Shown here piece by piece: positions 31,456 to 60,186 of a stretch of 64,000 nucleotides of DNA (position 1 is its first letter; every line of letters begins with the position of its first letter). A program made the position numbers and the translations under genes. Under the pieces are notes generated by a model. That model did not search any database and was not told the DNA's origin. It worked only from the letters and a program-made list of their open reading frames with translations. The stretch lies in assembly GCF_003018255.1 (NCBI RefSeq), contig NZ_CP027440.1; one strand, written 5' to 3'. Source of the DNA: Escherichia coli. Lineage in GTDB: Bacteria > Pseudomonadota > Gammaproteobacteria > Enterobacterales > Enterobacteriaceae.

Positions 31456-31479
31456 ACACATTCGCCAATGGAGCACAAT

Positions 31480-31590
<111 letters not shown>

Positions 31591-40135: not shown

Positions 40136-40214
40136 GCTATCTGCAATTTGCGAAATTGCCTGATGCGCTTCGCTTATCAGACCAACTATGTCCGGCAGTT
40201 CCCGTGCCTCTCAT

Positions 40215-52699: not shown

Positions 52700-54427
52700 A
52701 TGATTTCAGGCATTTTAGCATCCCCGGGTATCGCTTTCGGTAAAGCTCTGCTTCTGAAAGAAGACGAAATTGTCATTGACCGGAAAAAAATTTCTGCCGA
52801 CCAGGTTGATCAGGAAGTTGAACGTTTTCTGAGCGGTCGTGCCAAGGCATCAGCCCAGCTGGAAACGATCAAAACGAAAGCTGGTGAAACGTTCGGTGAA
52901 GAAAAAGAAGCCATCTTTGAAGGGCATATTATGCTGCTCGAAGATGAGGAGCTGGAGCAGGAAATCATAGCCCTGATTAAAGATAAGCACATGACAGCTG
53001 ACGCAGCTGCTCATGAAGTTATCGAAGGTCAGGCTTCTGCCCTGGAAGAGCTGGATGATGAATACCTGAAAGAACGTGCGGCTGACGTACGTGATATCGG
53101 TAAGCGCCTTCTGCGCAACATCCTGGGCCTGAAGATTATCGACCTGAGCGCCATTCAGGATGAAGTCATTCTGGTTGCCGCTGATCTGACGCCGTCCGAA
53201 ACCGCACAGCTGAACCTGAAGAAGGTGCTGGGTTTCATCACCGACGCGGGTGGCCGTACTTCCCACACCTCTATCATGGCGCGTTCTCTGGAACTGCCTG
53301 CTATCGTGGGTACCGGTAGCGTCACCTCTCAGGTGAAAAATGACGACTATCTGATTCTGGATGCCGTAAATAATCAGGTTTACGTCAATCCAACCAACGA
53401 AGTTATTGATAAAATGCGCGCTGTTCAGGAGCAAGTGGCTTCTGAAAAAGCAGAGCTTGCTAAACTGAAAGATCTGCCAGCTATTACGCTGGACGGTCAC
53501 CAGGTAGAAGTGTGCGCTAACATTGGTACGGTTCGTGACGTTGAAGGTGCAGAGCGTAACGGCGCTGAAGGCGTTGGTCTGTATCGTACTGAGTTCCTGT
53601 TCATGGACCGCGACGCGCTGCCCACTGAAGAAGAACAGTTTGCTGCTTACAAAGCAGTGGCTGAAGCGTGTGGCTCGCAGGCGGTTATCGTTCGTACCAT
53701 GGACATCGGCGGCGACAAAGAGCTGCCATACATGAACTTCCCGAAAGAAGAGAACCCGTTCCTCGGCTGGCGCGCTATCCGTATCGCGATGGACCGTAAA
53801 GAGATCCTGCGCGATCAGCTCCGCGCTATCCTGCGTGCCTCGGCTTTCGGTAAATTGCGCATTATGTTCCCGATGATCATCTCTGTTGAAGAAGTACGTG
53901 CACTGCGCAAAGAGATCGAAATCTACAAACAGGAACTGCGCGACGAAGGTAAAGCGTTTGACGAGTCAATTGAAATCGGCGTAATGGTGGAAACACCGGC
54001 TGCCGCAACAATTGCACGTCATTTAGCCAAAGAAGTTGATTTCTTTAGTATCGGCACCAATGATTTAACGCAGTACACTCTGGCAGTTGACCGTGGTAAT
54101 GATATGATTTCACACCTTTACCAGCCAATGTCACCGTCCGTGCTGAACTTGATCAAGCAAGTTATTGATGCTTCTCATGCTGAAGGCAAATGGACTGGCA
54201 TGTGTGGTGAGCTTGCAGGCGATGAACGTGCTACACTTCTGTTGCTGGGGATGGGTCTGGACGAATTCTCTATGAGCGCCATTTCTATCCCGCGCATTAA
54301 GAAGATTATCCGTAACACGAACTTCGAAGATGCGAAGGTGTTAGCAGAGCAGGCTCTTGCTCAACCGACAACGGACGAGTTAATGACGCTGGTTAACAAG
54401 TTCATTGAAGAAAAAACAATCTGCTAA
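52700..54427 (+). CDS. ptsI: PTS Enzyme I (PEP-protein phosphotransferase)
   Basis: 575-aa ORF; phospho-His region ([15 protein letters not shown]) and PEP-binding domain. Confidence 0.97.
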
Positions 54428-54467
54428 TCCACGAGATGCGGCCCAATTTACTGCTTAGGAGAAGATC

Positions 54468-54977
54468 ATGGGTTTGTTCGATAAACTGAAATCTCTGGTT
54501 TCCGACGACAAGAAGGATACCGGAACTATTGAGATCATTGCTCCGCTCTCTGGCGAGATCGTCAATATCGAAGACGTGCCGGATGTCGTTTTTGCGGAAA
54601 AAATCGTTGGTGATGGCATTGCTATCAAACCAACTGGAAACAAAATGGTCGCGCCTGTAGACGGCACCATTGGTAAAATCTTTGAAACCAACCACGCGTT
54701 CTCTATCGAATCTGATAGCGGCGTTGAACTGTTCGTCCACTTCGGTATCGACACCGTTGAACTGAAAGGCGAAGGCTTCAAGCGTATTGCTGAAGAAGGT
54801 CAGCGCGTGAAAGTTGGCGATACTGTCATTGAATTTGATCTGCCGCTGCTGGAAGAGAAAGCCAAGTCTACCCTGACTCCGGTTGTTATCTCCAACATGG
54901 ACGAAATCAAAGAACTGATCAAACTGTCCGGTAGCGTGACTGTGGGTGAAACCCCGGTTATCCGCATCAAGAAGTAA
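54468..54977 (+). CDS. crr: Glucose-specific PTS EIIA (EIIA-Glc)
   Basis: 169-aa ORF, last gene of ptsHI-crr. Confidence 0.97.
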
Positions 54978-54991
54978 TTCTTGCCGCAGTG

Positions 54992-55020
54992 AAAAATGGC
55001 GCCCATCGGCGCCATTTTTT
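54992..55020. terminator. Bidirectional intrinsic terminator shared by crr and pdxK
   Basis: AAAAATGGCGCC-CATC-GGCGCCATTTTTT; the T-tract overlaps the pdxK stop codon (55019-55021 on minus). Confidence 0.8.
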
Positions 55021-55883: not shown

Positions 55884-55949
<66 letters not shown>

Positions 55950-55974
55950 CACAAAACAAGGATAAGGTAATTCA

Positions 55975-56343
55975 ATGAAGAAAATCATTTGTCTGGTCAT
56001 TACGCTGCTAATGACACTCCCCGTTTACGCGAAGTTAACTGCCCATGAAGAAGCCCGTATCAACGCCATGCTGGAGGGATTAGCACAGAAAAAGGATTTG
56101 ATATTTGTGCGTAACGGCGATGAACATACCTGCGATGAAGCGGTTTCCCACCTGCGTCTGAAGCTCGGCAATACCCGTAACCGCATTGACACTGCCGAGC
56201 AGTTTATTGATAAGGTAGCCTCGTCGTCATCGATTACCGGGAAGCCGTATATCGTGAAGATGCCCGGTAAAAGCGATGAGAACGCACAACCTTTTTTACA
56301 TGCGCTGATTGCGCAGACGGATAAAACGGTGCCTGCGCAATAA
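55975..56343 (+). CDS. yfeK: Small secreted protein of unknown function
   Basis: 122-aa ORF with signal peptide ([19 protein letters not shown]); divergent from pdxK. Confidence 0.82.
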
Positions 56344-56345
56344 TC

Positions 56346-57257
56346 TTAAATCCCCGCCCCCTGGCTAAAATGCTCTTCCCCAAACACCCCGGTAGAAAGG
56401 TAGCGATCGCCGCGATCGCAGATGATCGCCACAACCACCGCGCCGGGGTTAGCTTTTGCCACGCGCAGTGCTCCGGCAACCGCGCCGCCGGAGCTGACGC
56501 CACAGAATATTCCTTCCCGCACTGCCAGCTCGCGCATGGTGTTTTCCGCATCGCGCTGATGAATATCCAGCACTTCATCCACCAGCGAAGCGTTGAAAAT
56601 CCCTGGCAGATATTCCGCAGGCCAGCGGCGAATGCCGGGAATGCTACTGCCCTCTTCCGGCTGCAGGCCAACAATGGTCACCGGTTTGGATTGTTCGCGC
56701 ATAAAGCGTGACACACCGGTAATGGTGCCGGTCGTCCCCATACTGGAGACAAAATGCGTAATGCGCCCGCCAGTTTGCTGCCAGATTTCCGGCCCGGTGG
56801 TGGTGTAATGGGCGAAGGGATTATCAGGATTATTGAACTGATCGAGCAGCTTTCCTTCACCACGATTGGCCATCTCCAGCGCCAGATCGCGCGCGCCTTC
56901 CATGCCCTGCTCTTTGGTGACAAGAATCAGTTCCGCACCGTATGTCAGCATCGCTGCACGGCGCTCCTGGCTCATGTTGTCGGGCATCAGCAATTTCATG
57001 CGATAGCCTTTAAGCGCGGCAATCATTGCCAGCGCAATGCCGGTGTTACCACTGGTGGCTTCGATCAGCACGTCACCCGGTTTAATTTCCCCGCGCTTTT
57101 CCGCCTCAACGATCATCGAAAGTGCCGCACGATCTTTTACCGAACCTGCCGGGTTATTGCCTTCCAGTTTCAACCAGACTTCACTGCCGTTATTCGGCCC
57201 CATTCGCTGCAACTTCACCAGAGGCGTATTGCCAATTGTTTGTTCTAATGTACTCAC
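56346..57257 (-). CDS. cysM: O-acetylserine/thiosulfate sulfhydrylase B (cysteine synthase B)
   Basis: 303-aa ORF; PLP-lysine motif (NPAGSVKDRAA); ends ...HFSQGAGI. Confidence 0.95.
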   Translation of the reverse strand: MSTLEQTIGNTPLVKLQRMGPNNGSEVWLKLEGNNPAGSVKDRAALSMIVEAEKRGEIKPGDVLIEATSGNTGIALAMIAALKGYRMKLLMPDNMSQERRAAMLTYGAELILVTKEQGMEGARDLALEMANRGEGKLLDQFNNPDNPFAHYTTTGPEIWQQTGGRITHFVSSMGTTGTITGVSRFMREQSKPVTIVGLQPEEGSSIPGIRRWPAEYLPGIFNASLVDEVLDIHQRDAENTMRELAVREGIFCGVSSGGAVAGALRVAKANPGAVVVAIICDRGDRYLSTGVFGEEHFSQGAGI

Positions 57258-57280
57258 GATCTATGTCCATACGTGGTGTT

Positions 57281-57317
57281 GCCTGATGCGACGCTTGCGC
57301 GTCTTATCAGGCCTACA
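57281..57317. repeat. REP element between cysM and cysA
   Basis: GCCTGATGCGACGCTTGCGCGTCTTATCAGGCCTACA, the same family as the units at 31480-31590. Confidence 0.85.
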
Positions 57318-57390
57318 GGTTACAAACCTTGCCATTAAAAAGCCCGGATCGCGGGAAGCGCCTCCGGGCGTTTAACATTCACTCAACCTA

Positions 57391-58488
57391 TCAGGCGCTT
57401 TGTGCGAGAGCAAGTTCCTCATCGCGGGTTTCAATACGCTCGTCGCCGTTATACAGCCGCGCATGTTGCAGACCAACGAATAAACGCTCGCCACGCTGCG
57501 GGGCATCGTCGCCATGCATCACAACCGTCAGCGGTTCGTTGTACCACCCCAGCGGCTGCACGACTAATTGGGTGTAGTGGCCTTTCGGGCTGGCTTCCAG
57601 TACCTGTACCGGCAGCGGCGAATCGAGGCTGGTACGGCGGCTGATATCCACTTCCCACGGGCGCAGGAAGAGATCCACCGGCCCCTGATAAGCAGGTGTG
57701 TAGCCCAGCGGCCAGCGATGTGCGCCAACATGGAACTGCCCGCCGCGAATGGTTCCCTGCAGGCGGTTCACTTCGCCCATAAATTCGAGCACAAAGCGGG
57801 TCGCTGGTTCGCGCCATACCTGATCCGGCGCATCAGCCTGCTCGATATTGCCCTGGCTCATCACCACTACACGATCGGCTACTTCGGTCGCTTCTTCCTG
57901 GTCATGGGTCACGAATACGCTGGTAAATTTCAGTTCTTCATGCAGTTGACGCAACCAGCGACGCAGCTCTTTACGCACCTGCGCATCCAGCGCGCCAAAC
58001 GGTTCATCAAGCAGCAGAATTTGCGGTTCCACAGCCAGCGCACGCGCCAGCGCCACGCGCTGTTTCTGCCCGCCGGAAAGCTGTGCCGGATAACGATCCG
58101 CCAGATGCGCAAGCTGGACCATCTCCAGCAATTTTGTCACTTTCGCTTTGATGGCTGCGGCATTCGGGCGCTCGCGACGCGGCAGCACCGTCAGGCCGAA
58201 AGCGATATTGTCGAATACCGTCATATGGCGGAACAGCGCGTAATGCTGAAACACGAAACCGACTTTACGATCGCGCGCATGCAGGCGGCTGACGTCGGTG
58301 CCGTGGAAGCGAATATGCCCGCTGGTTTGATGCTCCAGCCCGGCGATAATCCGCAGCAGCGTGGTTTTCCCGGAACCGGACGGCCCCAGCAACGCGACCA
58401 TCTGACCAGAAGGAATATCCAGCGAGATATCGTTCAGCACCTGGGTGCGACCAAAAGACTTCTTAATATTGGCAATCTCAATGCTCAT
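57391..58488 (-). CDS. cysA: Sulfate/thiosulfate ABC transporter ATP-binding subunit
   Basis: 365-aa ORF; Walker A (GPSGSGKTT), ABC signature ([15 protein letters not shown]), Walker B (LLLDEPF). Confidence 0.96.
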
Positions 58489-59353
58489 GATGTTCCTCCT
58501 GCTGCGCGCGTTTTTCCTGATTCTCCAGGCGCCACTGCAACATACTCTTTAAAAACAGGGTGATAATCGCCATCAGCGTCAACAACGCAGCGGCGGTAAA
58601 GGAGCCGACGGTGTTGTAGTCCTGCTCCAGCAATTCAATCTGTAGCGGCAGCGAAAGTGTTTCGCCGCGAATCGAGCCGGAAACCACCGACACCGCGCCA
58701 AACTCGCCAATTGCGCGGGCGTTGGTCAGCACCACGCCGTAAAGCAGCGCCCAGCGGATGTTCGGCAGCGTGACGCGACGGAACATCTGCCAGCCGGACG
58801 CGCCAAGTAAAATCGCCGCTTCGTCTTCCTGGCTGCCCTGACTTAACATTACCGGTACCAGTTCGCGCACCACAAACGGACACGTCACGAAGATGGTGAC
58901 CAGCACCATACCCGGCCAGGAGAACATAATTTGCAGATTATGTTCATCCAGCCAGCCGCCCAGCGGGCCGTTAGAGCCGTAGAACAGCAGATACACCAGA
59001 CCAGCAACCACCGGCGACACGGCAAACGGAATGTCCAGCAGCGTCAGCAATAGCTGGCGTCCGGGGAAGTTAAAGCGCGTCACCAGCCAGGCCAGCAGAA
59101 TGCCGAACACCAGGTTTACCGGTACGGCAATCAGCGCGATCATCACCGTCAGCCAGATGGCGTGCAGCATGTCCGGATCGGCCAGATTTTGTAACACCGG
59201 CATCAGTCCTTTGCTGAACGCCTGTACGAAGATATAAATCATCGGCACCAGCAGGATGAACGCCGATACCAGCATCCCGATGCCAATCAGAAACCATTTG
59301 CCCCAGTTAATCGGGCGCGCGTCATAACGCTTCAATTGTGTCACTTCCGCCAT
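58478..59353 (-). CDS. cysW: Sulfate/thiosulfate ABC transporter permease
   Basis: 291-aa membrane ORF; 3' end overlaps cysA start by 11 nt. Confidence 0.95.
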
Positions 59354-60186
59354 TAATGACCTACCACACGCCGACCAAAGCGACTTTGCAGAGTGTTAAT
59401 TGAGAACAGCAACAGCAGCGATGCCGCGAGGATCACCGAGGCAATCGCGCTCGCCGCCGGGTAATCAAACTCCTGTAAGCGAACAAAGATCATCAGCGAC
59501 GTCACTTCTGTTTTCCAGGCGATATTCCCGGCGATAAAAATCACCGCGCCAAACTCACCGAGGCTGCGGGTAAACGACAGCGCCACACCCGCCACCAGCG
59601 CCGGAGATAGTTCCGGCAGCACCACTTTGCGAAAACTCTGCCAGCGTGTTGCGCCGAGCGTTTCTGCCGCCTCTTCATATTCCGGGCCTAACTCTTCCAG
59701 CACCGGCTGCACGGTGCGCACCACAAACGGAATGCTGGTAAAGGCCATCGCCACCGCAATCCCCAGCCAGGTATAGGTGACTTTGATATCAAACTTCGCC
59801 AGCCATTCACCGTAAAAACCGTTCACGGAAAAGAGCGAGGCCAGCGTTAAACCGGCGACTGCCGTTGGCAGCGCAAAGGGTAAATCCATCAGCGCATCAA
59901 GCAGCGTGCGACCCGGAAAGCGATAGCGGGTTAAGATCCACGCCATCAGCAGACCGAAAACGCCGTTAAAAATCGATGCCACAAACGCCGACAGCAGCGT
60001 CACTTTATAGGCTGCGACCACCTGCGGGTTGGTGATCACCTCCCAGTACTGCGCCCAGCTCATCTGGGCCAGTTGCATCACCAGCGCGGAGAGCGGCAGC
60101 AGCAAAATCAGGCACACAAACAGCAGACTGGTGCCGAGGCTTAAGGTAAAGCCCGGCAGCACGCGTCTTGAAGAAACTGCAAACAT
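59353..60186 (-). CDS. cysU: Sulfate/thiosulfate ABC transporter permease
   Basis: 277-aa membrane ORF; stop overlaps cysW start. Confidence 0.95.
   Translation of the reverse strand: MFAVSSRRVLPGFTLSLGTSLLFVCLILLLPLSALVMQLAQMSWAQYWEVITNPQVVAAYKVTLLSAFVASIFNGVFGLLMAWILTRYRFPGRTLLDALMDLPFALPTAVAGLTLASLFSVNGFYGEWLAKFDIKVTYTWLGIAVAMAFTSIPFVVRTVQPVLEELGPEYEEAAETLGATRWQSFRKVVLPELSPALVAGVALSFTRSLGEFGAVIFIAGNIAWKTEVTSLMIFVRLQEFDYPAASAIASVILAASLLLLFSINTLQSRFGRRVVGH

Follow-up and report, generated by a model that had tools for sequence, protein, structure and literature searches.

Two convergent genes, yfeK and cysM, end almost stop to stop in the Escherichia coli DNA analysed here (a stretch of 64 kb, hereafter the window), which raises the question of whether a gene was lost from between them and of how transcription from either side might end. 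A preliminary description of the window had placed the two stop codons 2 bp apart with neither a gene nor a terminator in between, had named a gene of roughly 0.7 kb, yfeS, as lying at this position in K-12, and had proposed that the strain either lacks yfeS or has cleanly excised it. The junction is made up of the following elements:

55975-56343, plus strand: yfeK, 122-aa form (signal peptide and DUF5329), ending ...KTVPAQ*, with TAA at 56341-56343
56346-57257, minus strand: cysM, cysteine synthase B, 303 aa, stop at 56346-56348 (TTA on the plus strand)
56341-56345: TAATC, the yfeK stop and the 2-bp spacer, the presumed empty insertion site of the yfeS cassette

The distance between the stops, taken from ORF coordinates, is exactly as described, the spacer being TC at 56344-56345 (positions 56326-56354 read ...GTG CCT GCG CAA TAA tc TTA AAT CCC...). 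The ORF list and a terminator scan agree that neither a gene nor a terminator separates yfeK and cysM in the window, and both reading frames are intact. The yfeK product was recognized as Pfam DUF5329 and by the NCBIfam equivalog PRK10318.1-3 (positions 1-122 of 122, 279 bits); the YfeK model itself has 122 positions and is matched by the window's protein end to end. The cysM product was assigned to Pfam PALP. The gene order is ptsI-crr-pdxK(-)-yfeK(+)-cysM(-)-cysA-cysW-cysT-cysP, with cysM being the last gene of the cysP-cysT-cysW-cysA-cysM cluster. Strain 2014C-3338 is 99.9% identical over 55900-57300, and its RefSeq annotation gives the same two genes in the same neighbourhood. The feature is ordinary and visible in standard RefSeq annotation; it is neither an excision nor categorically new.

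The gene order ascribed to K-12 was correct. In the K-12 derivative DH1Ec169 (L001) a 124-aa yfeK is followed by yfeS (735 bp, annotated as a WGR domain-containing protein), by a spacer of ~190 bp that holds two REP-type palindromes, and by the cysM stop. The window shares with the K-12 yfeK-yfeS-cysM locus (b2419-b2421) the flanks ptsI-crr-pdxK-yfeK and cysM-cysA-cysW-cysT-cysP and the sigma-E motif before yfeK. It differs from it in that the K-12 form is 959 bp longer (yfeS and REP/BIME), has two more yfeK codons (...KTVPAEGN*, 124 aa, versus ...KTVPAQ*, 122 aa), and joins yfeK and yfeS in an operon. A search of the 64-kb window did not reveal yfeS elsewhere in it. Short matches to the yfeS-cysM REP/BIME palindromes of K-12 were detected at 31479-31568 and 40150-40186 of the window and are ordinary REP elements.

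The frequency of the two states was determined in 5426 complete E. coli genomes. A 70-bp query spanning the tight junction was matched near full length in 3998 of them (73.7%), and the yfeS coding sequence was detected by sensitive blastn in 1387 (25.6%), many of which are laboratory derivatives of K-12. Together these account for 5385 of the 5426 genomes, which fits two essentially exclusive states. Among the 1387 genomes yfeS occupied a median of one place per genome, with just one copy on a plasmid. Genomes listed without yfeS include O157:H7, O145:H28, O111:H8, O121 and ST131 strains. In six out of six sampled yfeS-less genomes, spread over the identity range, the junction was base-for-base that of the window, and four out of four sampled yfeS-containing genomes shared one pair of boundaries. 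The locus is therefore an empty-site presence/absence polymorphism with the same flanks and discrete, shared boundaries, and the recurrence of an identical junction (6/6 sampled, 3998/5426 overall) means that the tight arrangement is a conserved haplotype and not a product of chance. That yfeS is missing from the rest of this strain's genome, beyond the 64-kb window, rests on these population counts. In O157:H7 strain F7508 (L003:376-743) yfeK is annotated as a frameshifted pseudogene, the locus lacking 1 bp relative to the window; 1400-bp matches were likewise obtained from other O157:H7 genomes in the sample.

The direct junction, which had been presented as an oddity, is accordingly the majority state (~74% of complete E. 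coli genomes) and is shared by other genera. The preliminary description had held that finding the same junction in reference genomes would show its gene order to be wrong. Most genomes do have that junction, and the order given for K-12 is still accurate. K-12 should not be taken as the default gene order here, since it carries a minority accessory insertion, which calls for caution in scans that use it as the reference. A collapse of yfeS through an assembly or sequencing artefact is refuted by the occurrence of the same junction in 3998 independent complete genomes, and by the two intact frames; we regard its probability as negligible.

Comparison of filled and empty sites defined a 952-bp cassette consisting of its own ribosome-binding site, yfeS and the REP/BIME palindrome block. 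The GC content of yfeS is 39%, that of the window 49% and that of cysM 56%. Cassette boundaries were set by hand with the help of anchor motifs; a MAFFT pairwise alignment of the window with K-12 misplaced the gap. The common empty site reads GCG CAA TAA TC TTA AAT, and empty sites as a whole follow GCG(C/G)AATAATC(C)TTAAAT. The filled site reads GCG GAA [GGA AAT] TAA TCC [GCTTTGG...yfeS...REP...GCTAT TAATCC] TTA AAT. Two differences separate them: the 952-bp segment that directly follows TAATCC and repeats this motif at its far end (8 bp when counted as ATTAATCC), and six extra in-frame bases (GGAAAT) that change the YfeK terminus from PAQ* to PAEGN*. Rare empty-site variants, GCGCAATAATCCTTAAAT in FCI29 (with TAATCC) and GCGGAATAATCTTAAAT in Z1323 (with GCGGAA), bridge the empty and filled sequences. 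Simple insertion or deletion alone does not turn one haplotype exactly into the other, since the six extra bases (GGAAAT) require a second step.

The presence of TAATCC at both cassette ends is what a target-site duplication of a transposon- or IS-type insertion looks like. Two-copy 8-nt repeats are frequent in the region (13 families in 1.1 kb), so the duplication is no more than a hint at a mechanism. Terminal inverted repeats were not found at the cassette ends, and the cassette encodes no transposase or integrase, its sole ORF being that of the WGR-domain protein YfeS.

The same repeats could have served the opposite event, in which the lineage once had yfeS and lost it by a clean deletion, recombination between the flanking ATTAATCC direct repeats being one possible way. 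The 8-bp repeat does lie exactly at both ends of the cassette, in E. coli and in a Pseudocitrobacter MAG, and yfeS is dispensable, as IS-disrupted copies of it exist. However, the product expected from such a deletion, GCGGAAGGAAATTAATCCTTAAAT, was found in none of the 5426 genomes when a synthetic junction was used as query, and the window junction is 7 nt shorter than this product and differs from it by substitutions. Further arguments against deletion are the identity of the junction across very different E. coli lineages and its near identity in P. faecalis, the lack of yfeS in more distant genera, the 39% GC of the cassette, and the abundance of two-copy 8-nt repeats mentioned above. These comparisons largely refute precise excision, which we consider improbable. 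Of the two proposals of the preliminary description, then, absence of yfeS holds for the junction and the 64-kb window, and clean excision is not supported.

The polarity of the change was assessed in an outgroup scan with YfeK as the query and one genome per species; Salmonella, Klebsiella and E. fergusonii were not among the loci returned. The yfeK-cysM junctions were as follows:

Pseudocitrobacter faecalis (L014): TAA-ac-TTA, 2-bp spacer, YfeK likewise ending PAQ*
Enterobacteriaceae UBA5654 (L015): 1-bp spacer
Citrobacter amalonaticus (L021): 31-bp spacer
Superficieibacter sp. (L018): 32-bp spacer
Entomohabitans (L023): 57-bp spacer
Escherichia sp. E1V33 (L012:1380-1460): tail-to-tail overlap of 12 nt, the cysM stop (TCA on the plus strand) lying inside the yfeK frame, YfeK ending TVPSNP*

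None of these six loci contains yfeS. Parsimony and base composition thus point to the tight junction as ancestral and to yfeS as inserted. Over the ~10 outgroup loci, the most parsimonious assignment makes the empty site the ancestral state and the K-12 arrangement a derived one, found in a minority (~26%) of E. coli.

We therefore put at about 85% the probability that the window carries the ancestral, unoccupied yfeK|cysM junction and that yfeS is a foreign cassette which was inserted once and has since spread, with transcripts at the empty junction presumably ended by Rho. A cassette of foreign composition would have entered once at TAATC(C), directly behind the yfeK stop, an event that duplicated 6-8 bp and gave yfeK two more codons; that boundaries are identical, including the 6-bp addition, argues for a single original insertion. 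The cassette would then have moved among lineages, and even genera, most likely by homologous recombination in the highly conserved 3' ends of yfeK and cysM, and strains like that of the window would never have received it. The locus would be a neat case, on a small scale, of foreign DNA altering the final codons of a core gene.

Spread between genera is indicated by the Pseudocitrobacter MAG (L013:3858-4816), in which yfeS is found at the same site with boundaries identical to those of K-12 (L001:3433-4405). Its YfeS is 94% identical to that of K-12. Between E. coli K-12 and this MAG dS is 0.12 for yfeS, 0.55 for cysM and 1.17 for yfeK, and identity between the genera is 95-98% within the cassette, which has sharp edges against flanks of ~88% identity. 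Because the cassette is so much closer than its flanks, by dS and by identity, yfeS must have crossed genera long after their divergence.

As to the route, identity in all taxa, with or without cargo, is 90-100% over the final ~150 nt of yfeK and over the ~76 nt of cysM next to the junction. For this reason the flanks look alike under homologous recombination and under site-directed insertion. No donor-like recombination tract was visible in the flanks of the Pseudocitrobacter yfeS-containing haplotype, and short tracts ending in the conserved yfeK and cysM stretches would leave no trace. An identical CysM protein (WP_001306253.1) occurs with and without yfeS, in strains THO-008 and WCHEC4533, which is consistent with recombinational shuffling within E. 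coli. Homologous recombination, being parsimonious, is the most likely route of spread. A site-directed insertion of an unrecognised kind, linked for instance to the REP/BIME block or to TAATCC, would make the junction a recurrent landing site in Enterobacteriaceae; at least three unrelated small cargoes, the lack of a recognisable recombinase, and the presence of yfeS with REP at exactly the same nucleotide across genera are what such a reading draws on, and we judge it unlikely.

Other cargo was found at the yfeK|cysM site. In E. albertii NBRC 107761 (L017:3831-5649) it comprises 1819 bp and contains, on the minus strand, two AT-rich ORFs (280 aa and 175 aa). These ORFs belong to no confident Pfam or PADLOC family, a sub-threshold DKNYY match being the only hit, and the cargo brings its own canonical terminator, a hairpin with a T-run, directly after yfeK. 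It was absent from complete E. coli genomes, where just a 40-bp repeat was matched. In Superficieibacter electus (L020:3973-4395) a 140-aa SnoaL/DUF4440-like ORF is present, the stop of which overlaps the cysM stop. In Citrobacter sedlakii (L019:3931-5817) an ORF of 628 aa in a lower-GC stretch, with no Pfam or PADLOC match, directly follows yfeK and may occupy the same site; cysM falls outside the 3.5 kb fetched.

The E. albertii, S. electus and yfeS cases are alike in having altered final yfeK codons and an intact cysM. A spacer of 1-2 bp leaves an insertion no position but one next to the cysM stop, and changes in the YfeK tail are tolerated. Permissiveness of the site is the simplest explanation for the repeated cargo. 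Integration hotspots for accessory genes between conserved core genes are a general concept of bacterial pangenomics. The yfeK-cysM interval resembles them in having received several unrelated cargoes (yfeS, the E. albertii ORFs, the SnoaL-like ORF of S. electus). It differs in that its cargoes are very small (0.5-1.8 kb) and come with no integrase, transposase, tRNA or PADLOC defence genes. An anti-phage defence hotspot was considered and rejected, as no PADLOC match was obtained for YfeS or for the cargo proteins of E. albertii, S. electus and C. sedlakii. The reuse of the inter-stop position by unrelated cargo and the cross-genus occurrence of yfeS at an identical position are mildly unusual; conserved flanks and selection account for both adequately, and the biological importance is small.

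Features relevant to transcription of the tight junction were located as follows:

55914-55941, plus strand: GAAACTT-N16-TCAAA, sigma-E-type promoter motif of yfeK, the single match in 64 kb, where 0.03 are expected by chance
56308-56341: inverted repeat with perfectly matched 9-bp arms, ATTGCGCAG-16 nt-CTGCGCAAT, which runs up to the yfeK stop and, read on the minus strand, begins 5 nt past that of cysM
56344-56421, plus strand: C-rich, G-poor tract, candidate Rho loading (rut) region, in the yfeK transcript past its stop and antisense to the cysM 3' end

The sigma-E motif is identical in K-12 and has one spacer base changed in E. coli L011, Escherichia sp. E1V33 and E. albertii. The yfeK gene belongs to an experimentally studied set of sigma-E promoters (PMC3326320) and is induced by envelope stress (PMC6850105), and in K-12 yfeK and yfeS have been described as one sigma-24 operon (PMC11502571). 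In the window yfeK is monocistronic and probably sigma-E-driven, with cysM closing the cys operon; the cassette would have turned a monocistronic sigma-E gene into a two-gene operon.

The inverted repeat at 56308-56341 formed a hairpin in both the MFE and the centroid folds of both strands, with z-scores of -0.9 to -1.7, which are not significant. The hairpin is retained in P. faecalis, whereas yfeS-containing haplotypes have a shorter, 5-bp version. An intrinsic terminator was defined as a GC-rich stem with a loop of 3-8 nt and a U-tract immediately 3' of it. The hairpin falls outside this definition because its loop is 16 nt and no U-tract follows it on either strand, and no intrinsic terminator was revealed at the junction by the terminator scan and RNA folds of both strands. 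Convergent gene pairs can rely on bidirectional intrinsic terminators or on Rho. The tail-to-tail yfeK/cysM pair resembles such pairs in sharing a hairpin at the junction, but the 16-nt loop and the lack of an A-tract or U-tract set it apart.

C makes up 37% and G 21% of the 78 nt at 56344-56421, and the resulting C/G of 1.81 ranks at the 96th percentile among 78-nt windows of this sequence. On the yfeK side this agrees with the composition expected for Rho, an untranslated C-rich, G-poor stretch of ~80 nt past the stop. On the cysM side the sequence past the stop is unbiased (C/G 1.0). Composition and folding make Rho-dependent termination at the junction likely, at least for yfeK. Once translation stops, Rho would end transcripts that enter the opposite gene, loading at the C-rich tract past the yfeK stop, and the 9-bp-stem hairpin may shield the 3' ends of both RNAs or cause pausing there. 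The K-12 cassette instead places REP palindromes between yfeS and cysM. Strains without yfeS are a ready-made system in which to ask how convergent genes end transcription with only 2 bp between their stops.

The lack of a terminator between yfeK and cysM, the tight or overlapping arrangement kept in several genera, and the conserved sigma-E promoter before yfeK are also what one would expect if the junction were a selected device, in which mutual antisense read-through couples envelope stress to sulfur assimilation and yfeS with REP acts as an insulator in K-12-like strains. But the spacer varies freely, from a 12-nt overlap to 57 bp, and roughly one E. coli genome in four tolerates a cargo insertion. 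Rho, moreover, ends untranslated and antisense transcripts and normally suppresses antisense read-through of this kind. Such a regulatory role seems to us doubtful, with low odds.

In the YfeS protein itself, an N-terminal WGR domain (residues 9-71) is the only recognisable part (Pfam, NCBIfam and solved structures), and no family or solved relative was found for the rest of the protein in NCBIfam or among solved structures. A K-12 yfeS deletion mutant was reported to be sensitive to boric acid (PMC11502571). Homologues over the full length exist in Fusobacterium, at 40% identity, and one, at 70% identity, is carried by an E. coli plasmid. The phage collection contained no phage-borne yfeS apart from partial Listeria matches. 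The dN/dS ratio of 0.15-0.32 indicates that yfeS is under purifying selection. It is nevertheless dispensable where carried, since IS-broken copies exist: an IS4-family element (ISVsa5-like) interrupts it in E. coli T2 (L033:3746-5818) and IS1 does so in LR-03 (H41/H100). The plasmid homologue is an unannotated ORF of pZ0117EC0005-3 (NZ_CP098226.1, 50 kb; L034:4001-4702), with 70% amino acid identity over 96% of the query; the chromosome of the same strain carries yfeS too, 97.4% identical to that of K-12.

Identity between the window and K-12 is 98.5-100% over ptsI-crr (52900-55000) and 91-96% over the cys operon (56100-60100, a stretch that takes in the 3' half of yfeK, cysM, cysA, cysW and cysT). 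Over 55900-57300, 1707 E. coli genomes are 90-95% identical to the window and just 9 are at least 99% identical. Allelic divergence at yfeK and the cys genes appears unusually deep for core genes, which suggests recombination with diverged donors.
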